From Haliotis rufescens (lineage: Eukaryota), in contig NW_025963813.1 in NCBI RefSeq assembly GCF_023055435.1, positions 35,216,001 to 35,280,000 of the forward strand: a stretch of 64,000 bases of DNA, in the 5' to 3' direction. Under the pieces are notes generated by a model. It was not told where the DNA came from, did no database searches, and saw only the letters and a list, made by a program, of their open reading frames with translations. Positions within the stretch are counted from its first letter, which is position 1, and each line of letters starts with the position of its first letter. Below are positions 3,637 through 64,000 of the stretch, piece after piece. Position numbers and translations under genes: made by a program.

Positions 3637-6600
3637 TCAGCACCATCCGGGGGTCCAAGCGTATCCATATTTTCTAGGATCAGATGCAGGATCCGGTCTG
3701 GGGTAATTGGCTGGCACCACCGTCTTCTTGTATTCCTCAAACCGGGCACGCAACTTCGCCACTATGTCCGGCATCTGCTGTGCAAGGTCGTTGTGCTCGG
3801 TAGGATCCTCTGGATATGAATCGGAATATTTGTTAACATGGGGTTAAGAGCTTTATATGCAATATGCATTCAACGTGGTTTTGCATTAGATTTTTAACTG
3901 CTTGTATTCTTTGGTTTTTATCCACCATTAACGTCTGCAGAGTGTGGGTGTTGCTGGCGCTGCAATCGTTTAACGATGGTCAAGTTCAGTTATTATGTGA
4001 TAATGAAAACCTGAAGGGAACTAGGCCTTGGAAACCCGTCAGTTTGAATGTATCCAATAATAGACCAGTCATAACCACAAGTCGAAACAAATATACGGTA
4101 CGTTGGTCACGGTAGCAGTACATGCATGTGCTGACAGGGACTGTGTCATCAGCATGTAGGACATCTAGGGATGACATGACCATTGACTTTATATGTCAAA
4201 TAAGTGCGGACCCGTGAAGATTCCGGGGTAGAATAGGTCTTCAGCAACCCATGCTTGCCGTAAAAGGTGACTATGCTTGTCGTAAAAGGCGACTAACGGG
4301 ATCAGGTGGTCAGGCTCGCTGACTTGGTTGATGCATGTCATCGATCCCAATTGCGTGGGTCGATGCTCATGACATTAATCACTGGATTGTCTTGTCCAGA
4401 CTCGATTATTTACAGACCGCCGTCATATAGCTTAAATATTGCTGAGTGCGGCGTTAAACAAACAACCAACCAACCAACCAACCAACCATCCAACCAACCA
4501 AATAAGTGCGTACCGCGAATGTTGAAGAGATGGACTGGTTCATCTCCTGTGTTGTAAACTGTCTCTTCATATTTGTCATCTTTGGTTCCGTTCATGGGTT
4601 TGTGCCAGCCATCCGGACCTCCTGGGAACCCGAGGATCAGCTTGTAATCTCCTAGTCTGAGACACAAAAAGGAGACACAGTTACATAAACTCCTTACTTG
4701 ATTGCTTTAATTACAGGTCCTAGATTTAGCATAGCACAAAATCAAATCGCAATGACAAATGATACTGGTAACACACCTTATCCCAGCATGGCCTTCGACT
4801 GGAACTGGAAAGTCATCAATGTTGTAGATGAACTCTGTCCTTGATGAAGGGAGCCCGTTTCGAATAGAATCCCAGTGACTCATTCCATCAATGAAAGTTT
4901 CTATTACCCATATACAATGTAAGATGGTAAAAACATTTCGTAGTACCTTGCCGATGATTTTAGCAATAGTTTATCGAACGAACGACACATTCAAAATTGC
5001 CTCACTGATTCTTTGAAGTTAGAAAGTAATCTTTCGTGATTGCAATTGCGACAAAATATTTGGAAACATGAAAGAGAATCTCCTTACCTGGAGTTCCCCC
5101 AGCAGCAGACACTAAAGTCGGTTTCCAGTCGACGGCGTGGATCATCCTGTTTTGAGGTAGAAGCGATTCACATTTACAATAAACCGCATGTTTTAATCCA
5201 TCAAAAATTGACTACAACATTTCAAATAGTTTTAGTTTATGTACTAAATAATCAATGAGTGGTATAACAAGAATGTCATCAATGGTGCATTATGAATACA
5301 CTACCAGTCATAACATTGATATAGTGATATTACACATATGTGGCGATGTGAACATGGTTATGGAAGCATGAACACTGATAATTTTCATATGCTATGTTTT
5401 CCTGAATTCGAGTTTCAATCAGGAAGTGTCCATAGTCCTATATTAACTTTCTAAATGTCTGTCGAAATTCTAACAAGGATCATTTATTTTTTCTTTGGAT
5501 CATCATTGATAAACTTTTCTAAAATAGAATCACTGAATGTGGTTTGATTGTATCCACTGGTGTTACCCATCGTATGTCGTTCTTGTCTTCTTGAGGCCAG
5601 CACCATACATGAAGGATGTCCCCCTCGTTCCCCCCTCCCAGATCGTGTACTTTCCCCCTCTCAAAGGCCAGTTGTTGCCATACTTTTCTATATAGCCCCC
5701 ATTCTGTAAAATCAACGGTTTATTAAAAGGGAGAATGACATGATTATCAGTGTTATGAAACATGAGTATCCAGCTGAACCAATAACATATATTTAATCTT
5801 TCATAAACTGAAATAATGGGAAAGTTCAATGTATTTTTCACTCACAAATTTTCAGCGGGAAAGGTGTTATGTTCCTATTGTATAACATGGAACTGCCTTG
5901 GTGGCTGTGTGTGTTTCATTTTTTAGCTTTGCACAATGCCGTTTCTTTCATACATCATTTGATAATATTTAACAAGAAAGAAAAGATCTTATTTTGCTGC
6001 CGTGTATTGTAAAGTGTCATAAAGTCAAACTGTCATTGGTGTTAAGCAAGCCATATTTATTGTTAAAGATTGCGAGAACTATAGTCTGATTACAAAAAAA
6101 CATCCACCAAGTACAGGATACGTGAATCATTCTGTAAAATAATGATGTTGATACTGCGGCCAACCTTTAAAATACAGTACCACAAACCTTTCAAACACGT
6201 CACAATACCGTATTACGTAATTTGTAGTATTTTGTTGCCAGTCACACCGGCGAAACAATGCCCTGTGACGTCAGGGGTCATCGCGTGTGCATAAGCTCCC
6301 CCCAGGTGATCTATCATCTCTACCCGCAATGTCATTGAATACGCCCAGCGGTGTTGAGAGTTTTGAATATTTGTTTACAAAATATAGCCTGCGGCGGCGC
6401 ATTTTAGAGCAAGCGCTAGTTTACGTTTTTCTCCTGATTCAAGTGGCTAAAATGGTTAATGTACATATATTATTTTTTCGGTTCATTTATTTTCATTATT
6501 ATGCAAAAGAATGCAGTTTATTAGGGATATTATTTTGGCGCTGAACACAACCAAATGTCGCCAGTGTTAGGGTAGGTTATCCCAAACTCTATCCTTAGCC

Positions 6601-9600
6601 CTTGGATCCCCTCTACGATCAATCACCCCTACGATCATTAGGTTTAGGTACCCGTTTTTTGGCTATTAGATTACTCGAACTCTATCCTTAGCCCTGGATC
6701 CCCTTGACGATCATGAGGGTTAGGTACCCGTTTAGTGGATGTTATAGATTCTATAGCGGCTCCTAATATTCTTCACGCAAAACCGTTGAGTATAAAGGAT
6801 GAAATGGTTTTGTGTCGAATATTTTGGCTACTGGAAACTGTCCTTGAACATTCACACAAGCCACTTTCACCGGCTATATTTTTTAAGTACTGATTCAAAA
6901 GCGAAATCACCGTTGCGTCGTCACCAGCCATGCTCATGCCTCCCTCGTTCCTTACTATTATCCACATCATTCTAACAGTGTTCCCTACCCCACTTTTCTG
7001 TCACAAAATCCGACCGACGAATTATTATGTCATTCATGCGTACTCCCGAGTTCGATGTCTGACGTCTAACGCCCCGAGCCGTTTTTAATTCGCGCTATAT
7101 TGGCTCATTCCTGACCACGGACCTGTAGATTACGGAATGGGACGAGTGTGCCGAATGACATCGAGATCATTCGTAAATGTCCGTAGACTAAAGTCACGAT
7201 CGCGAGACACCGTGCCTACCCGTAACCTTCGTAAGTGTCCGTCACCTATTCGACCCTTTTCGTTCAGTTCCGTAACGTCATAGGCATGACTAGGTAAATT
7301 TGCACTTATTTTCACAGTGTGGACGTAGCTCGGTCGGTTAGCTGTCGGGCTAACAATCCGAAGGTCGCGGGTTCACGTCCGACGGATTCTCACAAAAACT
7401 GTTTGCTTGTCTTTGCGACATGTGATCTACGGCAGCGATCGTCCTCACGAGAGGTTGTGGCACTTTATTCTAAAGGTGCTCCGATACTGCAACTGCAAGT
7501 ACTTACGTCTGTGGTAAATAGAATCAGAGTATTTCCAAACAAACCCCGATCCGTCAGGGCCCGAGTAATATTTCCAACCGCCTCATCCAGGGCAGACACC
7601 ATTCCTGCAAGTAATGAAAGTAGTGGGTCAGTGCTTTGAAAAATATTTCAGATATGGCATTCCCCTTATGTAACTCAGCTCCACAATAATTCAATATTAC
7701 TTGGCACTATAATAATTTTCTTTCTGAGAAACACAACATGAGGTTTGAGAATATGAGTGAGACAATTGCATGAATGAATATATAGGAAATACGGACATTA
7801 ATGTGCATACCGCTGAACTTTCTTCGCCCTTTGTTAATCACGTTCAGATACATGTCCTCGTACTTCTTAGGCACCTGTGGCGTCCATTGTTGAGGTACAT
7901 ACATTGACAAACTGAACACATTCATTGCATTGTGAATAAATAGAGCATCTAGAGCATAGTGACACAACTATTATCATATTAGCATAATCATAATTTGCCA
8001 CTTTCAACAGTATTCCATTTATATCACGGTGTGTCAGTATCATATGGGAGGAAAGCCCAAAGTGAAGTAGTCTTTTTGGTGAAACCCACGAGCACTGGCA
8101 AAGTGCTGACAAGACCAAGAAAAATAAGACTGGGCCGCCCTGCCGCCGAAATGGTAATGAATTGATCCATTCGTGACTATGTATATGACACTCTTAATAG
8201 CAACGTCTTTCGGAAATAATAAAACTGACGTTAATGTTAAAATTGGACAGACTCAACTGTAGGCGGAGAATCTAAACGTATACTCGTTTTCAATACTGTG
8301 ATTCAATTACCTCCATAGGAGCATGTACATTCTGATAAGGGAGATACATAAATAGAGGCTGTGATACATTATGTCGATGGATGATGTCAACGGCTCTCTG
8401 GGCGAATGTGAACTGAAAGGACAATAGGAATGTACACAATGATCAAACCAATAAAAGACTTTAGATTTGTTACAAAACGTAAGTATTTTAAAAATATAAT
8501 CGTGATTGATATAAAGATTGTCAGCTACCCTTAACGGCAAATTGCCCTTGCATACATACAGCAGAATATTCTCCAGAATAGTTTCTTGCCGGTCGCTGAT
8601 TGTCCCTGTAGTCTAAGTACCCTCCTGTTGGAATATTAAAGAAAATAGATCAAAATACATCTGCAAAGAATGTATATAAAAAACGTAAATTCACGAAGCG
8701 ACCTTTAAGAGAAGCTTTCTAGAAACCTTACAACCAGAATAATACGCACCAACAGTGTGATTGAAGTAGTCTTCAGCTCCATTATAATAACCAAAGAAAG
8801 TATCGAAGCCTCGGTACGTCGGTGTGCACTCCCACTTGCAATAACCCAGGTGCCATCTGAAATTGTAGTGCATATGATAAGTGTACAGATACATACTGCC
8901 ACTTACATACACAACACAATTCCTGTGCACCATAAAATTCACATTAAAATACAGCTTCGAAGGTGTTTTTTCCTTAGAATCATGCATGGTTATCATATGT
9001 ACAAACACTTTGTCAAAATAACCCCATGATGACCCTGATAAAATCACTTGCATCTCGGGACATTGCATGTACTAATCCCTCGAGTAAGAATTTCGTCTCA
9101 CATTCACAGTACACAGCCAAACCCTATAAAGGTTATGCCACACCTTTCCTAAAATGCGCGGTTGCATGCGATTGGAATGTTTGAAACTGTAATTGCACTA
9201 AACGTTGTTGCTGAACATTTTTGTGTTCATCGTAACGCTTATCATTCAGTCTTGGAACACCAGGGACCGACCACCATCACGACATCTACGAGTAATCTCA
9301 CGTTGGGAAGGTCATCAAGGTCAACTTTATCAGCCCACATCATCCCTGGCTTACCTCCGTGCAAGTACTGTGAGGAATCGACGATGAGAGCATAACATCT
9401 GACCATGACCTCAAACGACGTTTACGTTTGATGCAACGTCACTGGACTGTACGCCTGTCATGGTCAAGACAACATCTAAGATTCAAGTTACAGGACTAGA
9501 GGTCCTCTTTAAGGATTAGTCCAGGTTACATTTTGACAGCAGTGATGATCGTCAGCGTGTTTATCGACGCCGAATGGCGTGTTCAACGTAGTGCATTTCG

Positions 9601-11319
9601 GTGGCGGGAGTATAATGGGATGGGAAAGCATCACTGCACACCACTGGACCCCTCTAATGATCATCCTTCAGACCCATGGCCGTCACATCATTTTACATCA
9701 TGACAATTCACGCCCTTAATTTCGTCTGCACACGAGAGCTATCGCCCATTGAGCATGTGTGGTATGTAAAGAAACGTCATTTACGCCTGTTTCCAAACCT
9801 ATCAACATTGGTTCAGCTGTGACAAGTGATGGTCCAGAACTGAAATGACTTCACATAAATCTTCCTCAAACATCTTATGTTGTCAGGTAGGCGCCGTTCT
9901 CAGTATTTTGTCACTGCTGATGGTGGTCCTACCTGATACTGACCCAATACTGACCCAATACTGACTTGTGAACTGACAACTGACCGTACACATAGTATGT
10001 AATAAACTATGTTTTCATTTGGTCCAGTTAAATGTCAATAGCTGTTTGTATTTTCATTGTAAAGTAATACCTACTTTCCTATCATGTGCGTAGCATAGCC
10101 GAGTTTCTTCAGTTTCTCAGGCAGGAAGGTATAGTTGAGGGGCACACACACTGCTTGGGCATGGAACACTGTCTTATGCTAAATATGAATTTGTCTTTGT
10201 GAGAAATTCCTGCATGCTCACATGGGACATTACATGAGATCAGTTTCATCAGGAACGTGAATGATTAAAGATCAGAAGTAGATGTAAACAAGTCATATGC
10301 ACTTATGGCTTTAACAAACATTTAAGCTAGCCTGACAATCCGATCCCATTAATCGCCTCTTACGACAAACAAAGTCGCCTCTTACGGCAAGAATGTGTTT
10401 CTGAAGGCTTATTCTAACCCAGACCTTCACAGGTGAATCATTTAAATGGTCATGATAACTCTGACAATACATCTTGTGTGTTTATTCGAAAACATGGTCA
10501 ATTGAACATTGTGAAGGGTTTCTCCTTCAAGAAGCGGGAGAATATCCCTAAATAGATTGTTAGGAATATATTGCTCAATGCGTTTTTGTACGTCCTAATA
10601 TTTATGAATTGATCGACATAATTACCTGCATGCCTACATGGAATGGAAACATTCCACTCATAAAGGCGGTACGGGATCTGAAACAATGAGTGTACTGATA
10701 TTTGTGTAATATTGTAATGCAATTACAAAGGCATTTCGACACTACAGCTCCACCTAAAACCTGTTCAATATTGTTTTATCTATTGGTATTTGTTTTTTAA
10801 AACTTGAAAACATGTTCGTCTCCATGTGCATGGAATGAATGTCTACTGTAACTTATTTGATAATTTATATTTTGTTGAATTGCAACTGAAGTTACAATCA
10901 ATGTCTTTTCTTATGCCTCATTAAAATGAGAATGGAACAATATAACCAATTTACGGGCTGCACAGAGGCTGGACATATGCATTTTCGAAGATGATTCCTT
11001 CTGTGGCCAATTTGTCGATGTTTGGGGTCTTCATGTCGGAATTCCGGAAACCAACATCATTCCAGCCTGTACAAACACACAGTCTCCTATGAATACTTGG
11101 TTTTATAGTATAAATATATCTACTTTGAAATGAGATGCATTTAGAGTGGCATACTGTTTCAGTAGGTAGCTCACTTAAATCACTTTCTGATTGCCTTTAC
11201 TATCTACACTCACCTAAGTCATCAGCCACAATGAACACGATGTTCGGACGCTGTGCTGATGCCAATGAAAAATAAAATAAACATAAGAACAGAGCAAGGA
11301 GCTGTCGAACGTCCATCAT
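3637..11319 (-). CDS. Arylsulfatase B-like sulfatase, paralog A (14 exons, 481 aa, intact)
   Basis: Exons 11214-11319, 10955-11066, 10626-10677, 10075-10178, 8750-8856, 8560-8624, 8311-8412, 7811-7874, 7507-7604, 5567-5703, 5088-5146, 4777-4900, 4514-4656, 3637-3809 (1446 nt, all GT-AG, phases consistent). Signal peptide, ADDLGWND, FGly motif [32 protein letters not shown], ends WTPGWC*. Confidence 0.93.
4209..4499 (+). mobile_element. SINE-like retroposon family R1, full length, in gene A intron 13
   Basis: CCCGTGAAGA...GCTGAGTGCGGCGTTAAAC(CAAC)n; TSD CAAATAAGTGCG at 4197-4208 and 4499-4510; absent at the homologous site of gene C. Confidence 0.85.
6158..7482. mobile_element. Non-autonomous DNA transposon (Merlin-like or other 8-bp-TSD superfamily) in gene A intron 9
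   Basis: TSD GATACTGC at 6150-6157 and 7483-7490; imperfect 27-bp TIRs GGCCAACCTTTAAAATACAGTACCACA / GGAGCACCTTTAGAATAAAGTGCCACA (21/27); site empty in gene C. Confidence 0.8.
7320..7392 (+). other. Degenerate tRNA-like sequence inside the DNA transposon
   Basis: A-box TAGCTCGGTCGG, anticodon arm TCGGG-CTAACAA-TCCGA, GGTCGCGGGTTCA; acceptor and T stems do not pair well, so not called a tRNA gene. Confidence 0.5.
9105..9990 (+). mobile_element. Degraded Tc1/mariner remnant in gene A intron 4
   Basis: Frameshifted transposase motifs ([22 protein letters not shown]); homologous copy in gene C intron 4. Confidence 0.7.
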
Positions 11320-12589: not shown

Positions 12590-13350
12590 TCCACACGGAG
12601 AAATAGAACTAGAACACAGAGACAAATCGTCAATAGGCATTTAGAAGTTGGTGTAACTTCTTTATTACAATTAAGAGCGACGGCGTTGGTTCTAAAACCG
12701 TTTTCAAGCAAGTTGTATACAGAGTATGGTTAACAAGTAAATATACAGGTAGGAGGCAATGTTTATACAGTAGAGTAGTTATCTCATGTAGTATTACTGG
12801 AATGGAGAAGCCTGTTATGTACACAAAAGGGTAGTAAAGACAATTATCGGCGAAGTCGGTAACATAAACAAAAGGATGACGCCAGTAATATAAACAACAG
12901 GATTATGGTAGATTAGGGTCTTTGATGAGTGGATAGTACGCTGGGGGTATGTAATAGCCTTGGTCACGGTTGAAACAGGGTTGGAGTCTTTTGATGTTGA
13001 TAGCTTCTTGAAGTTTTCTGATTTTGAAGTCTTTGAGGTTGGTGGTGGGAGCTTTCACTTTATCCAACACAATGCTGTGGCTTGGGTTGTCACGGATATG
13101 GTCTGATAGAGCCGATTTTGGGTCATCCTTTGAGACTGAGCTTTGATGTTCTTTAATTCGGGTTTTATGGGGCCTAGAAGTTTCTCCAATGTAAGCTTGT
13201 CCACAATTGCATGGAATGTGGTACACTGCACCTGATGGTTCTAGTTTGTGTCTAGATGGCGGTTTCCCTGTGGCTGTTATTGTGTTCTGAATGGTATGAC
13301 TTCTCTTGAAAACTAGATCAATGTAGGGGAGGCTGATCACAAAGGGTGCA
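12590..13350 (-). mobile_element. Penelope-like retroelement 3' fragment (GIY-YIG endonuclease)
   Basis: ORF 12903-13340: GAVYHIPCNCGQAYIGETSR...RIKEH...SALSDH...RKLQEAINIK...FNRDQG. Confidence 0.85.
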
Positions 13351-13361
13351 GACTGTTGAGA

Positions 13362-13860
13362 TGAAATGAGGCCGCATGCTACTATGTGACTATAAATATA
13401 CCTTTAATGTCATAGACTAGACTGATAAAGCATATCTATACTTCCACCTTGACCTACATGTTCTGGTAGTTGACGTTATCGTGTGTTCACGAAATGGAAC
13501 AGTTTTAAACAGCTATCTGAACCACATACTGTTAACAAGGACTGTGCTATACATTCCTGTCAGATTACGAAACAATGCAGCGACGACTGTGACATAAAGT
13601 CCTGACAGATAAAGAAAATGTGCTGACATGTTTGAGTGGATACTAATTGGGGATTGGTAATTCAGGGACCTGCCTGCCACTCCACATTATCATTGTGCAT
13701 GAGGTATTTATGACGGAATGATGACTGCGTGAACAGCCAACTCATTTTTGAGGATGTGAAGATGTAAACCCTTCATGACTAACGTTAGCCACAACAGACG
13801 GACTTAGTATTAAGTAGAGCACACATGCTTACTACATTATCATTGAAAGCCAATACTCCT
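13362..13860 (-). other. Orphan duplicate of the A-type arylsulfatase upstream/5'UTR region
   Basis: Aligns to 11335-12200 and 49370-50120 (GACTAGACTGATAAAGCATATCT, CTATACATTCCTG.CAGAT, GTGAAGATGTAAAC) but no exon 1 follows; 16330-16620 likewise repeats 12330-12580. Confidence 0.7.
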
Positions 13861-14917: not shown

Positions 14918-15800
14918 ACAACATACCAAGATTAACAGATCGCTACATCCGACTGCGCCACGTACGTGAAAGGACGAACACAGCCACCCCAACCGCATCT
15001 TAAATACCGGGACTGTGCAGAATCTTCAAACAGACAGTCCGAAACCGTTTAAGAGCAGCTGGTCTAAAAGCAAGACGTCTTGTTCGACGCATCATATTGA
15101 GTCGACCACATCGTCAACAACGACTGCATAGGTGTCCTCAACACAGGGTATGACCTCAACTGCGATGGAGAGATGTCTGGTTCAGCGACTAATCAAGATT
15201 TCTCCTCAGCCGAGGGAATGGAAGAACACAGGTCTACAGACGTCGGGGAGAAAGTTACGCTGGAAACTGCATACAGGAAGCGGACAGGTAGGGTAGGGGT
15301 AGTATTATGATGTGGACGGCTATCGCTTATCATGGCAGGACAGGTTTGGTCCATATCAAGTGCAATTTTACGGCTCAACGATACATCAACGAAATTCTCC
15401 TGCAACACGTCCTCCCAATTGCAACGGTGTATTCCAGCAGGACAACCCTCGACCGCATGCAGCAGGGATCACAAGAGCCTGTCTACACAACAGCAACGTT
15501 GTCCTCCCCTGGTCCTCCAGATCCCCGAATTTGAACCTGATAGAGCACCTGTGGGATGAATTGGAAAGACGGCTACGCCGATGTCAACCACAGCCCCAGA
15601 CATTGCACCAGTTTGCCTTTACATTGCAGGACGAGTGGGCTACTATTCCCCAGGTTGTAATTAGCAGACTCGTCTCTTCCATGGGAGATGTCAGGCCGCT
15701 ATCGATTCCAACGGGGTACGTACGCGTAATTGATGGTAGCTGACCTTCACCTTGGACTTTTCCTATGTACCGATAACTGAGTTGACTTCTGTCACCAAAT
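14918..15800 (+). mobile_element. Tc1-like transposase remnant
   Basis: DRYIRLRH, WFSD, GSIMMW, FQQDNPRPH, WSSRSPNLNLIEHLWDELERRLR (DD34E-type) with stops and frameshifts. Confidence 0.85.
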
Positions 15801-51189: not shown

Positions 51190-52400
51190 AATATACTGAA
51201 CCTCAAATAAAACGTCACCCCAAGTAACATTGCATGAACAGTTGTCATTTAAATATCTAGGTACGTTTTGTCAAAGTTTCTAAAAATTAACATTACCTTG
51301 TCCGGAAAAATTAAGTTTGATGATAAAAAACCCAAAGCAGATGACAATAAAACCGCATCACGGCAACGGCCATGAAATTGAAATGCACATGCGTTCCCCA
51401 ATTCATGCCCTATCGGATCCACCCAGATCAGATAACATACATTTGTTATTGAATTGCTACCACATGCCAAGATTGACAAGAAATCAGCGACACCAAGCGC
51501 TTGGACGATTGCAGGCTGAACAAACCGCCCGGCAAGTAGCCAATGCATTTCACGTCCACGTAAGGACCATATACAGGCTCCAGCAACAGTTCCAGACCAC
51601 CAACACTACAGATGACCGACCACGTAGTGGAAGACCAAGGGTCACCACCCGACGTCAGGATCGTCAGATCATGCGACAGCATCTTCAAGATCGCTTTGTT
51701 ACTGGTGCGAAAACTGCTCGACAGACCACGGGAACACCAGCGACACATTAGTGCGGACACCGTGCGTCGATACCTCCACTGTCACAGGCCACACCGAGGA
51801 CCCATTCTGTCAAAACGTCATCGCCGGGACCGTCTTCAGTGGGCAACACAGCACCAGCATTCGCGCCATCAGCAGTGGAGAAGAGACCTCTTCTCAGACG
51901 AGAGCCGTTACTGTATCTCAACAGCAGATGGCATAGAGAGTCTGGAGTGGGGAACGTTATTCGGTACATTGATCAAGTCTTGAGACCACACGCCATACCT
52001 CATTTGGCACGTCGCCGCAACCACACGAAATTCAGCATGATGACGCCCGTGCCCGCACTGCGAGAGCAACAAGAGACTACCCCTTGCAGAATGCCATCAG
52101 AACCATGCAGTGAACTGCCCTCCGTCCCGATTTAAATCCCACTGAGCACCTGTGGGACGAGATTCAAATACGGCTGAATGACGTCCGACCTAGGCGAACA
52201 CAACAGCTGAACTGCGTCAGGCGTTCCCCAGAGTGTGGGCTCAAGTGCCTATGACCTTCATCAACCGCCTCATCCATTCCATGTATCGACGTTGCACGGC
52301 AGTCATCAATCCACATGGCGGACACACGAGATACTGACTTGTAAGGGTTCCTTTTAGTGGCGTTATGCTTATTATCTGTCACCTGTATGTTTCCTGTAAC
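51190..52400 (+). mobile_element. Tc1-like DNA transposon, near full-length but frameshifted
   Basis: From 51464 MPRLTRNQRHQALGRLQA...RPRSGRPRVTTRRQDR (HTH region), LFSDESR, QHDDARAH, PDLNPTEHLWDEI, GGHTRY*. Confidence 0.88.
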
Positions 52401-58589: not shown

Positions 58590-58870
58590 TATCAACTTCC
58601 GATAACGTCAATCTCAAGTGGGGGAAGTAACATCTTATTTCAAACATACATGTTACATCTTGTCAGTGATGAAAACGCATTTCATCACACATTCAAAGTG
58701 CACAGTGTCCAGGCTTGATCCAATACATTACTGAAATGGCGATCGATCCTCTTGTCCAGAACACTATGTCGGCACGTTATGTCTGGGAATTGTCAATTGC
58801 GATCTTGACTTCCTTTTTTCACCACCTTTTTTATCCCAGTGAAAGGAATACGACACATTTACATCTGACA

Positions 58871-61800
58871 TCATCTAAAATAAAGTTTTTTGGTCAACTT
58901 GGAACTAACATCGGGGAATTGTCCTTGCCATTCCTCATAGCGGTTGACCACTTTCCTACCTTTGACTCGTCTCGTCACTACCGTCATGATATCTGCTAGA
59001 TGATCGCTGTAAACATTCATTGAACAATTGATTAAATCATGGACTGCAGAAGGAACACCTGAATACCTGTAACAAGATGTTCTGATATCTAGATGTCACA
59101 CTGAAACTAGTCCTTCGATCGTTGCAAAACATTTTCATCTAGCATTTCGCGATATGACTGCAATATTGCCGATGCGATGTAAAATTTTAACTCTCTTAAC
59201 TCATCTAGCCTTTTTATCAAAGTGACATGATATGAAGTCTATATTCAGTATGTTTATACATAAAGCTTCAAATGATGGTACGGACTGTGAACAACCAGAT
59301 AAGTGACAAGTAACTAGTAGTTTATAAGACCAATAATACACATAGGGTTATTGTAAAAAAAAGTGGACACAGTGGATATCTATAATCGGAATTTCGAATC
59401 GGCATATGTAGTGGCAAATATATGATGCTACTCAATGTTTTCTAACAAATATTAGATCATTTTACCTGCCCGACAGCTCAGTCATTACTTTTATAAATTC
59501 GTCAGTGAAAACATCTCCTGTCTCATTGTTTCGAATTGAACTTTCACCAGGTTGGGCAGCATAGCAGAAAAAGAAGTCTTCAATATCCTCAATATCGCCA
59601 CAAGACTCATTACAGCTGACAGAAAAATCTGGAAAATGAATAAAATCAGGCAAAGATAACGCATTAGATTCAGTCACATTCAATCAGTAACATTTCACCA
59701 ACAAGAGATATTTTATTTGCGTTTGGAAGGAATGTGTTTACCTACGATTCAGGTACATGAAGGAAGATACTCTCTCTAGGTTATCTATATGTACATTTAG
59801 ATATACAGAAGGAACTGCGGTACAACTACTACTGATGCTCTAATAATGAGTTGTGAATTACTGAGGAAGATGACCCGTGAAGGGTAGAATAGGTCTTCAG
59901 CAACCCATGCTTGCCGTAAAAGGTGACTATGCTTGTCGTAAAAGGCGACTAACAGGATCGTGTGGTCAGGCTCGCTGACTTGGTTGATGCATGTCATCGA
60001 TCCCAATTGCGCGGATCGATGTTCATGATATTAAGCACTGGATTGTCTGTCCAGACTCGATTATTTACAATCCGCCGTCATATAGCTGGAATATTGCTGA
60101 GTGCGGCGTTAAACAACAAACCATCCAACCAACGAACAACTGAGGAAGATAGACAGACTAAAATCTCGGTTGTTTAAATCAGAATTGGTTATTGTGATTC
60201 CAGACCTCTGATTCACAAATCATAATTGAGCATTTGCAAATTTCATGATAGATTCACGGTTTTATTTTTAACTCAAAACAGATATAATTACACGTGTGTG
60301 CAGAACGTGGACACTAAATACAAAACATGAGGTTGTAGAATATATTCAAATTCAGTTAAACTTTACCACTCATACATTGTGGGTGTGAGATTTTATGGAT
60401 AGTTCATACTTACCATACTTCCTACATGCGTCAATGAAAAACAGCTTTGGTTTCCCTTTCAGATTGGGACACTTGTCAGGTCTAAATTGACGTGCAATGT
60501 CTTTGATACAAATCCTTTGGAGGTCTTTACTATATATTACCCCTTCTCTTCCATGTGAAGAAATAAAGACCACAAAACAGTCGGTGGCATTGTCGTCCAT
60601 GTATTTGCCTGCATCTTCAAGTATCTTCTCTATTTCCTTCTTTGTGTTATCAGTGTATGACCAAACTTTAAACTTCAAGTCCTCAAATAATGTTTTCAGT
60701 TTCGCTGGAATTTAAAACATGGTATTATAAACATCATGTGAAAATAATCCATATAACATTAAACTTATATTCCAATATCTACTATCCTTAGTTGTTACTG
60801 AAAAACCTTGTCAATCATGACAAATAATCTTATGGTTAACAGCAATACATCAATGCTATCACACCTACCAAATCTATCACATCTATCACACCTTTTCAAT
60901 GGAAATGTCCAGCAGAGAGGCAACAGTGAGATGTGTGTATGGGAAAGCCGAGTAATAACACATGACAAGGTACACAGTGATTAACACAAAGTCTATATGG
61001 GACATCAAACATGAGGTCATTTTCTAATCAAAGACTGCAAAGATTAAACAAATGTTCCGAACGTTTATACCCATATATACCCTATCTAATTATTGGTATA
61101 ACAGTCATATAACCACAAACCATTTGCACCAGCTGCTGCATGTCTGTTGAAGCCTGTCTTGTCGAAATGTACAATGTTGAGGATGACACAAAGTCCTGAA
61201 ACGTGTACACAGTGAGATGCTGCAAGTCTATATCTGATTGGGTTAATTGTCACGTAAAATTTTAGAACAACCACCTCAAGTAAGACCGGACTGTGGTCTA
61301 GGAAGGAAGGTTTCAAAGGTATTCTAAAGCATTTCAAATTCAACCAAAATGTATATCTGTATACGTCCTTATGCATGTATTCAAATGTACAAGAGCACCA
61401 TTTGATTTGGGCGGAGGTCCCGCGAGACAAAGTAATCTGTTCCTGAAAATACTTAAACAATAATTTATCCTCGGGTTTAACAATAATATCGTTTTGTTTA
61501 ATAGGCATTTTCTATTGTGTCTGCTTAACAATATTGCTCACTGGACATACTTGATTTTCTGAAGAATACCCCAAACACCCACAAATCGTGTGCCACCCGT
61601 GGGTCAGGATATGCGCACCTTTTTGCCAACGCCTGGTACCATCACAATTTGATGTTGATTTAAAAAAATATGCTCATGATGTAGTTGGAATAGTGCCATA
61701 TGTTTTTAGAAGAGGCTTTTTTTATTATGGAAATAGCTTTATCACTATGATTGTACTTTCCAGAGGAATATACTGAAAACATTGACTGAAAAAATATCAG

Positions 61801-62814
61801 GTTTCAAATACAAATGCCAGCATGCCCTCCTACTTAATACTTATTATTAAAAAGTCTAACCCAGGGAATATATGATTCATTTACTTTTCATAAATCAATT
61901 ACATCTCAGTACAAGTACCTCTTGGTTCAGACATCATTTCGTAGCAACGATCATCTGGAAAGAAAAGAGCTAGCTATGGATAAAAATGTTTGATCTTGCT
62001 CACGCATCATCATATGACATTTTTTAAGAATATCCCTAAGGCCAGTTAGGAATCAAGTATCTATATTTCCTTTACTTGGAAAAAAATGCTGCATTTGTCT
62101 TGGCAAAGCTACGACATTGAAAAGGAGCAATGTAGTTTTACCTGAATGCTTTATTGTCAGAGCCGACATTTCTGCTGCCAAAGGACTGCGTCTCTGCCAT
62201 GTGATGATATCTTTCACTTTCTGTTTCATTCTCAGAGTGACAGGTTTTATCCAATCAAGGGCATCTTGAGATTTAAGACCATCTAAGGGCTTTAGTCTTT
62301 TGTCTGTACGTAGAGATCTCACGTAATCTTTATTTTCATGTATACGTATTTGTGCAATAGCTTCGTGTCGGGTAAATTCGGCAACTCTATCATTCGACAT
62401 GTTGCATGTGTGGAGAAAGAGCACCAACCTGCATTTTGAAGCGATTACACCAGGTCTTTGTACCAGATCTGCACCAAAACATGGATGTGTGAAAAGTCTC
62501 ACATCAACAGCAGTACCATCAGTTAAACAAAGTTGATTCATTTCTTCAAAAATTTCCTCAGCTAGATCCTCATCAGCCGTTTCATATACAAGTGCAGCAT
62601 CAAAACTCTTACCAACTCTGTCTGTCCGTGAAGTCGTAGTTGTTACCTGTGTCGCCATGTTGGGAGCAATATCTGTGGTAGCCGTATCCCTATTTGCAAC
62701 GATTTGTGTAGATGTGGCCTCAGGGGATGTGTTTGATGCAGCAAGTGACTCAAACGGCTCAGAATCTTCAATAAGGTCACAGATATTGTCGGCATCAAAA
62801 CCTCCTCCTGCCAT
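58871..62814 (-). CDS. Caspase-family (C14A-like) protein with an N-terminal TIR-like domain (about 457 aa, 6 coding exons)
   Basis: Exons 62142-62814 (acceptor at 62824, so further 5' exons are possible), 61919-61954, 61121-61195, 60414-60704, 59466-59628, 58871-59006; all GT-AG and in phase (1374 nt). Caspase hallmarks: YEMMSEPRGLCVILN, FVVFISSHG, CPNLKGKPKLFFIDACR, DFFFCYAAQPGESSIRN, HLADIMTVV, LTKKLYFR*. Caspase call is strong; TIR call is by motif pattern only. Confidence 0.85.
59872..60138 (+). mobile_element. SINE-like family R1, full length, in caspase gene intron
   Basis: TSD ACTGAGGAAGAT at 59860-59871 and 60139-60150. Confidence 0.88.
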
Positions 62815-64000
62815 GCTTACTGCTCTGTAATGACAGTAAACCGGTTCGGTTACAAGTAGTGGAAATCACCCCTATCAAATCACTCTCTTGCCACCATCCC
62901 AATCCGACCCCAGTCCACCTCACCCCACCTTACCCCACCCCCATTCCCCACCCACCACCTTTCCTCATGACCGCACATTCCTTCTAGACTCAACAGTTTA
63001 CTTTTCATATATGTCGCTATCTTCCCCTGGTCGTGAAGTAACTATGTTTTTACTTCATTTGTATTAATGTTAATGCGAGCCACAAGAACATTTAAAGATA
63101 AATGTGATGGTGATGACGCGGTCTAAAGTCTATGAAATAAAAGTTATCTTACAACTATTCACATGAGAAATCATGAGAATCTACTTCTGGAATCAAAAGA
63201 TTCAAGCCATTTCTCTGACGTAAATAATGCTATGATTGACATATATTTTCTCTGTAGTTGACCTATAAGTGCGGCAGTTTGACGTGTTTAAAATGCAGGT
63301 TCAGAATGACCAGTGAGTTCCTGGCTCAGTATCAACTGCAAGAACAAAAGCATGACGTCATAATGAGATAGAGCAACAACAGTTCACCACCTACCAATAT
63401 CTTGGGCTGGTTTGCCAAATATTATAACAACATATTGTTGTATAAATTGTTCTAATCAAAATACAAAACAATAAGCACTTTATTAGTTTGGGGGTTGTAA
63501 GTTTGCAATACCATTAACCACAAGACGTGCATTGCTGTGGCCCTTCTGTGCCCTTTGTCGGCGCTTCGACTGTGACGTTTTGGCTGTGTCAGTACAAAAG
63601 ACAAAGGCGTGATACAGACAATATCGGTGGAAACGAAAATACCGATTGACTGCACAGTGCGAATATATATTAGCTAAATGCAGTCCAGGTGTGTATGCAA
63701 GGGAGACAACTGCGAAAGACTTATAGCACAAGATCATATGTGACTTTAATGTTCAGAGTTTTGTGTAATGACCAACCAGTATAATCCTTGATACAGATTG
63801 CACTTGCTCTGCTTCCTCGAACATCTGGTGCAGTTGTGCCATCAGACTAAGCCAGTATGGACTACATAGTCGAAAACGTGTTGTACATATCAAATATACT
63901 TCATTATTACGCCTGGCAACTTCCTTGTTTCGTTTTGATGTTGACATAATGGGGCGTGACGAAACATGTCGCAATATGCCACCGTGGTGTAATTCAGTGA

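Follow-up and report, generated by a model that had tools for sequence, protein, structure and literature searches.

A TIR-domain caspase of abalone with two carboxylates in its S1 pocket and a possible change in P1 preference

The window, a 64,000-nucleotide stretch of Haliotis rufescens DNA, contains a six-exon gene on the minus strand (62814-58871), the fourth exon of which carries the unusual caspase active-site motif analyzed here. The gene is present once in the assembly, and all five coding introns (5/5) have GT-AG boundaries. The joined frame encodes a product of 457 amino acids that matches P0001, a RefSeq caspase-8-like X2 protein labeled Haliotis rufescens, letter for letter. Its features are as follows.

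62142-62814, minus strand: exon 1, coding; residues 1-224, an N-terminal tail and then the TIR-fold prodomain, with a phase-1 donor at its end
62185-62619, minus strand: modeled TIR-fold domain, residues 66-210; nearest folds, the TIR domains of TRIF and MyD88
61919-61954, minus strand: exon 2, 36 nt; the caspase large subunit begins (Y-x-M...PRG)
61121-61195, minus strand: exon 3, 75 nt, phase 1-1; strand β1 and the loop with Arg-254, His-255, Ala-256, and Ala-260
60414-60704, minus strand: exon 4; catalytic His-312-Gly-313, Asp-353, Cys-355, and Lys-357
59466-59628, minus strand: exon 5; short intersubunit linker (Asn-365-Glu-366, Asp-370), Ser-389, Arg-391, and Asp-397
58871-59006, minus strand: exon 6; L4 (381) loop, dimer strand β6, and stop codon

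The N-terminal tail of exon 1 was modeled with low confidence and is probably disordered, and exon 6 is the most variable exon across related contigs. Exons 3 and 4 are seen joined (60704-61121) in contigs from runs X5 and X8; none of the listed runs is recorded as RNA, and this spliced contig junction is the sole evidence of expression. The RefSeq isoforms X1 and X3 use an exon upstream that lies beyond the window. Isoform X3 is annotated without exon 3, which is symmetrical (61121-61195), leading to the loss of strand β1 and Arg-254; its predicted product, a TIR domain with a broken protease, is a possible decoy. A paralog isoform, P0150, also lacks the segment equivalent to exon 3.

Among the other elements in the window, a SINE-like repeat lies in intron 4 (59881-60135; blastn gave 19 pieces in the window, the repeat itself counted, and run depth is very high). 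Transposon remnants, HTH and DDE_3 fragments that scored under the cut-off, are found on the plus strand at 51284-51748 and 15303-15740. A frame at 12906-13403 on the minus strand, for which a Pfam search returned no match, resembles a GIY-YIG retroelement tail.

The original prediction held that this active site departs from the caspase consensus while keeping its catalytic dyad, and the assembled gene bears this out. The His-Cys dyad is intact, with SHG at 60558-60550 (His-312, 60555-60553) and Cys-355 encoded by TGT at 60426-60424. The Gln expected before Ala-Cys is replaced by Asp-353 (GAC, 60432-60430), exon 4 reading ...FFIDACRKY, and the Gly expected after Cys-Arg is replaced by Lys-357 (AAG, 60420-60418). 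Two other predicted deviations were found outside the range 60414-60560: the RxGTxxD loop reads RHAAAGAN in exon 3 (Arg-254, 61145-61143), with Ala-256 where Gly is usual and Ala-260 where Asp is usual, and SWR reads SIR in exon 5 (Arg-391, 59533-59531). Both S1 arginines are retained, as had been claimed, Arg-254 at the Arg179 site and Arg-391 at the Arg341 site (caspase-1 numbering). Three features had been overlooked, namely Asp-397 at the Ser347 site, the His after the Arg179 equivalent, and the TIR prodomain.

It had also been proposed that conservation of DACR be checked, QACRG in orthologs being the outcome that would speak against a genuine motif. The black-abalone (H. cracherodii) homolog P0002 has DACRK and not QACRG, and it retains RHAAAGAN, SHG, and S-x-R...G-D-V-F as well. 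In runs X1 and X4, the contigs covering exon 4 show exactly four differences, none of them within SHG or DACRK. The motif is real and is conserved in Haliotis.

The P1 pocket of caspase-1 is described as consisting of Arg179, Gln283, Arg341, and Ser347 (PMC6438033). The four S1 positions here are Arg-254, Asp-353, Arg-391, and Asp-397 (59515-59513), giving a net-neutral pocket. Asp-397 lies at Arg-391+6, as does Ser347, and was aligned to the serine of the caspase-3 G-S-W-F motif; the L5 aromatic, usually conserved, is Ile or Asn. We counted how rare these residues are in the caspase domains of the other 149 among the best 150 representatives of 5008 matches. In this set, Asp was found at the Gln283 site in 3/190 domains and at the Ser347 site in 0/176 other domains, and the two carboxylates were paired in no other domain among those examined. 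Lys followed Cys-Arg in 5/191 domains of the same set, and His followed Arg179 in 15/183. The Gly at R+2 and the Asp at R+6, retained there in 166/185 and 176/188 domains, respectively, are both lost in the abalone protein. Among the genome paralogs, where the motif was readable at 16 of 29 loci, the Gln283 site held Gln in 14, Glu in 2, and Asp in 0.

The protein scored 142.5 bits against Pfam C14 and was nested among animal caspases in trees. Of the canonical C14A features, His-Gly and Cys, Arg179, and Arg341 are present, and Gln283 (QACxG) and Ser347 are absent. Judged from its sequence, the protein is caspase-derived and not a canonical Asp-specific caspase.

We traced the protease domain in a careful 28-row tree with the S1 columns removed and in a quick 88-row tree. 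P0001 and P0002 were sister to an abalone pair, L009 and the H. asinina protein P0013, with support of 95/97, and the quick tree agreed. In this pair, position 283 holds Glu or Asp and position 347 holds Asn; the loop Asp is missing, and the 75-nt exon 3 is shared. Both arginines are retained in P0001, P0002, and L009; at 179, P0013 carries Leu instead. All four clade members (4/4), with branch lengths totaling 2.5 changes per site, keep the dyad and have an acid at the 283 site; the rough chance of the dyad surviving in four members is 0.007, if its sites evolved at an average rate. No relatives outside Haliotis were found among the best 150 representatives of the 5008 matches, within the limited reach of three homolog searches.

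Variation within the gene was assessed from the differences listed between related contigs. Among these, 15 were non-synonymous and 1 synonymous for X1/X4, and 17 and 3, respectively, for X8/X14. Both ratios fit neutrality (P = 0.12 and 0.36), and ω ≤0.3 was rejected. Most of the changes lie in the L4 loop, strand β6, and the hairpin after His, with none among the listed variants at His-312, Cys-355, Asp-353, Arg-254, His-255, Arg-391, or Asp-397. Relaxed constraint or diversifying selection around a fixed core is possible, and either would fit. Run X1, compared with window positions 58805-62819, showed 0 differences over exon 1 and introns 1-3 (pieces of 678, 244, 780, and 399 bases), 4 differing bases in exon 4, and 15 differing bases in a 202-base piece of exon 6. 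The haplotype is a mosaic, which suggests recombination, gene conversion, or a small subunit under balancing selection.

P0001 and P0002 are 78-86% identical in the caspase part and 43-57% identical in exon 1, a gap that gene conversion could have caused. Their TIR distance is 0.70, compared with ~0.1 in other H. rufescens/H. cracherodii pairs, and a P0002-type exon 2 is also present in run X5. Given these two observations, we set aside P0002 as a strict ortholog; its sequence makes an older paralog or a deep allele more likely. A second copy, ~82% identical, is present in runs X8, X14, and X15, and its loose ends give R-H-A-S for the first loop and T-P-T following Cys-Arg (hand-translated). 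In the otherwise variable linker, an Asn-Glu pair is retained in P0001, P0002, and the spliced end of X5 (the last hand-translated); Asp-370 is also conserved, and the linkers of the sister genes are Asp-rich.

The prodomain was assigned by structure. A Pfam search of exon 1 returned no family, TIR included, and the TIR profile matched nothing among PDB sequences; the fold search decided. The model of this region (pLDDT 83) matched TRIF with Z 15.7 and rmsd 2.6 over 132 aligned residues and MyD88 with Z 15.4 (Foldseek E 1.3e-5), and on this modeled structure residues 66-210 are a TIR fold. The Glu of the W-C-x-x-E motif in helix αC is catalytic in TIR NADases. In our alignment (probability 52%), that canonical Glu falls on residues 147-148 (Phe/Thr) and not on the invariant Glu-151 one turn on.

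The genome holds 13 further matches to this TIR: six on C534, two on C334, four on C68, and one fragment. On C534 (L045-L069, G000:C534:0.79-1.02 Mb), six TIR exons lie in tandem, and QACQ[E/Q] caspase exons come after five of these. Within the array, one TIR contains a stop, one is split across frames, and at least three copies read R-D-S-S-C-K-D and not R-x-G. On C334 (L075:1716-3071 and 4396-9645; 34.48-34.49 Mb), one TIR exon is followed, after 1.3 kb, by an nSTAND3-ankyrin frame of 1749 aa, and TIR and nSTAND3-ankyrin are fused in the H. rubra protein P0173; as predicted from these sequences, the TIR-nSTAND3-ankyrin protein is a receptor of NLR-like type whose TIR belongs to this subfamily. 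The C68 TIRs (L042/L079 and L043/L080, G000:C68:1.07-1.16 Mb) belong to long low-complexity proteins, and P0169, P0171, P0174, and P0177, annotated as mucin-like or uncharacterized, have the same TIR. A C-terminal V-Q-I-G tetrad that is RHIM-like was found in 4/6 C68-type proteins, with Pfam RHIM E values of 0.008-0.025, below the cut-off; the predicted combination of TIR and RHIM-like motif is a TRIF-like architecture in a mollusc. The lone TIR-exon fragment (L038/L072, G000:C35:40.64 Mb) has no caspase exon within 30 kb.

In the TIR tree, this domain was sister to the TIRs of the C534 TIR-caspases (support 97/93). L009 and P0013, sister by protease domain, are without this TIR. The protease intron positions are unlike those of C534, and both TIR exons end with a phase-1 donor. 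As the simplest account, the trees and gene structures suggest that a TIR exon related to those of C534 joined a caspase of the L009/P0013 lineage by exon shuffling. A single origin of all TIR-caspases was not rejected by the AU test (p = 0.12).

We favor, with confidence somewhat short of even, the view that the gene encodes a TIR-recruited protease that has lost Asp selectivity, with a predicted preference for P1 Asn or a small neutral residue (or protonated Asp). The two acids in the pocket make it likely that the Asp preference is lost. The two new aspartates would pair with and cancel the two arginines, producing a zwitterionic pocket like those of legumain and PIGK, and the Arg-254-His-255 loop would be reshaped through the loss of the loop Gly and Asp. 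The TIR domain would act as an assembly module rather than an NADase, recruiting the protease to the abalone TIR-STAND-ankyrin receptors or TIR-RHIM adaptors. Such a TIR platform would cluster the zymogen, and the short-linker protease would dimerize by proximity, as initiator caspases do; the neutral pocket would then cut after Asn or a similar uncharged residue. Internal Arg-Asp ion pairs could instead collapse the pocket. A bolder version, which we regard as doubtful, is that the protein is an Asn-cutting caspase with a convergent legumain-type S1 pocket and that a STAND-ankyrin receptor, a TRIF-like TIR-RHIM adaptor, and the TIR-caspase together form a pathway equivalent to a TIR-based inflammasome with a non-Asp output. 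The probability remaining beyond these readings and those discussed below falls to other specificities.

An unlikely alternative to this change of preference is that the enzyme is a slower or relaxed Asp-directed caspase that accepts Asp or Glu, or is favored by acid, the arginines dominating and the new aspartates only tuning or weakening it. Both arginines are indeed present in P0001, P0002, and L009, the fold and features are nearest to caspase-3 and -8, the conserved Asp-370 and the Asp-rich linkers of the sister genes are in agreement with Asp cleavage, and PIGK, like legumain at low pH, takes Asp with a zwitterionic pocket. This reading has to accommodate, however, that two of the four pocket residues (2/4) are now carboxylates, a pairing found in no other domain examined, and that the R+6 Asp (176/188) and R+2 Gly (166/185) are both gone.

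We also judged it improbable that the protein serves as a decoy or scaffold in the manner of cFLIP, or is a copy in decay; it would then associate with TIR platforms and modulate the canonical QACQ TIR-caspases while catalyzing little itself. Its TIR being sister to those of the C534 TIR-caspases (97/93) would suit this role, as would closure of S1 by internal Arg-Asp pairs, the near-neutral ratio of the listed changes, and the annotated isoform without exon 3 (β1, Arg-254). Mouse caspase-12, moreover, is given as predicted inactive from a change of Arg341 alone (PMC11121540). cFLIP, however, lacks the catalytic residues, whereas His and Cys are intact in 4/4 clade members (rough chance 0.007 if these are average-rate sites), and no listed variant falls on a pocket or catalytic residue. 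The caspase part is also far more conserved than exon 1 between P0001 and P0002, although gene conversion could explain this.

The original prediction had pointed to paracaspases and metacaspases as the direction of change. Its altered, non-canonical pocket is supported, and weak activity or a scaffold role, which it also named, are among the alternatives above, but that direction is not supported: the protein has only one of four hallmarks and is without the key loop Asp, making a switch to P1 Arg/Lys, in which Asp-353 and Asp-397 would hold a basic side chain and the arginines swing out, very unlikely. Asp two residues before Cys, as in MALT1 (Asp462), the short linker, the position of MALT1 as the next fold after the nearest caspases (Z 25.7), and a separase model said in PMC4626109 to place an Arg-binding Asp in helix α4 all lean toward this switch. 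The three missing hallmarks (3/4), with Arg and not Leu at 179, Ala and not Asp at +6 (the MALT1 Asp365 site), and Arg and not Asp/Glu at 341, argue against it, as does the tree position nested among ordinary animal caspases. Finally, a sequencing error, private mutation, or mis-annotation, which the single occurrence of the gene in the assembly might have allowed, has a negligible chance and was refuted by P0002 and the independent-run contigs, which carry the motif, together with the open six-exon frame and the spliced junction.

Strict P1-Asp specificity is presented in PMC11121540 as the defining property of animal caspases. Divergent mollusc pentapeptides and TIR-caspases are each already on record, and neither alone is new. 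Searches of the open-licence literature turned up neither a DACR caspase from abalone, nor a caspase pocket of legumain type, nor this TIR subfamily; the supplements of PMC11463336 and PMC7836458 could list such sequences. A natural caspase with acidic residues at 2/4 pocket positions offers a ready test of specificity switching in clan CD, the predicted change here leading to the solution used by legumain and not to a return to Arg/Lys. If the predicted change is true, the enzyme would escape DEVD/VAD assays and probably viral inhibitors that use an Asp bait. That receptors, RHIM proteins, and caspases have one TIR subfamily in common suggests a form of immune wiring, so far undescribed, in a mollusc that is farmed. 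The account of the H. laevigata genome in PMC11103948 reports it to be without STING and without an annotated MAVS.

Compared with caspase-3 and -8 (MEROPS C14A), the protein has the same fold (Z 31.4, rmsd 2.3, 221 aligned residues, 34% identity), the His-Gly/Cys dyad, Arg179, Arg341, and the p20-p10 order. It differs in the changes of Gln283 to Asp, Ser347 to Asp, and the Gly after Cys-Arg to Lys, in the loss of the loop Gly and Asp, and in having a TIR in place of a CARD or DED. Divergent active-site pentapeptides are described as common among mollusc caspases (PMC7836458). A cFLIP-like pseudocaspase has lost its catalytic His/Cys; the dyad is intact in 4/4 members of this clade.

Paracaspases and metacaspases are stated to require Leu179, an Asp six residues on, Asp283, and Asp/Glu341 (PMC2064784), the MALT1 equivalents being given as Asp365, Asp462, and Glu500 (PMC4357240). 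With MALT1 and the metacaspases (C14B), the abalone protein shares Asp two residues before the catalytic Cys and a short linker. Of the hallmarks, it has the Asp283 site only (1/4), with Arg-254, Ala-260, and Arg-391 elsewhere; Leu179, the α1 Asp, an acid at 341, and the death or Ig domains are absent. A search of the genome for the MALT1 Ig domain gave 0/4 candidates, a count that does not imply absence. P0023, an ankyrin-caspase labeled Sanderia malayensis, has a first domain (residues ~216-470) with Leu179, the +6 Asp, Asp283, and Arg341 kept, and with 3/4 paracaspase hallmarks it is a better test case for the Arg/Lys idea. Another caspase, at L002/L085-L086 and in the H. asinina protein P0147, has an intact dyad, EACRG, and apparently neither the Arg179 nor the Arg341 site arginine, making it a second candidate for a specificity switch or a pseudoenzyme.

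The adaptor TIRs of TRIF/TICAM and MyD88 are the best fold matches to residues 66-210, but they share only 10-17% identity with the abalone TIR, which is fused to a protease and belongs to a subfamily seen here only in Haliotis. The TIR-caspases of the earthworm Metaphire vulgaris likewise join a TIR prodomain to a lophotrochozoan caspase (PMC11463336); they are cited there as an architecture only and as a possible prediction artifact, and the passages concerned describe no active-site change.

A closer match for the pocket is the C13 family, a likeness that we drew post hoc, after inspecting the sequence. The S1 pocket of plant legumain is given as Arg74, His75, Glu217 (Cys-2), Ser247, and Asp269 (PMC5995516) and that of PIGK as Arg60, His61, Asp204 (Cys-2), Ser232, and Asp247 (PMC10491789). 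The legumain Ser is reported to be equivalent to caspase-1 Ser339 (PMC4390986), and Asn specificity is attributed to the two-plus/two-minus charge of the pocket (PMC9098846). The abalone protein has the same Arg-His on the first loop (Arg-254-His-255), an acid at Cys-2 (Asp-353), Ser at the 339 site (Ser-389), a net-neutral pocket, and probably the second bottom Asp as well (Asp-397). The animal's own legumain reads E-A-C and G-D-V-Y, and its own PIGK reads N-Y-R-H and D-T-C; the G-D-V-F here compares with G-D-V-Y and G-D-W-Y in legumain. Equivalence of Asp-397 with legumain Asp231 rests on the common G-x-x-aromatic motif at the helix start, the profile alignment of legumain exons to the caspase p10 being not significant (probability <1%); the net-neutral charge is independent of this register.

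In legumain the 341 site is without an Arg, the place being occupied by the Arg44 guanidinium, whereas the abalone protein keeps both arginines; the pocket geometry therefore cannot be identical. PIGK has an equal S1 set but a broad specificity that includes Asp, with His61 and both acids dispensable. Unlike C13 enzymes, the abalone protein is a caspase by descent, with the extra Arg at 341 and no C-terminal prodomain (it ends at β6), and its Pfam C13 score of 17.4 bits is below the cut-off of 22.8. In the fold comparison, caspases gave the highest Z values (31.4 and 30.9), followed by MALT1 (25.7), legumain (17.4), and PIGK (16.4); the resemblance to legumain is thus one of convergence and not of membership.
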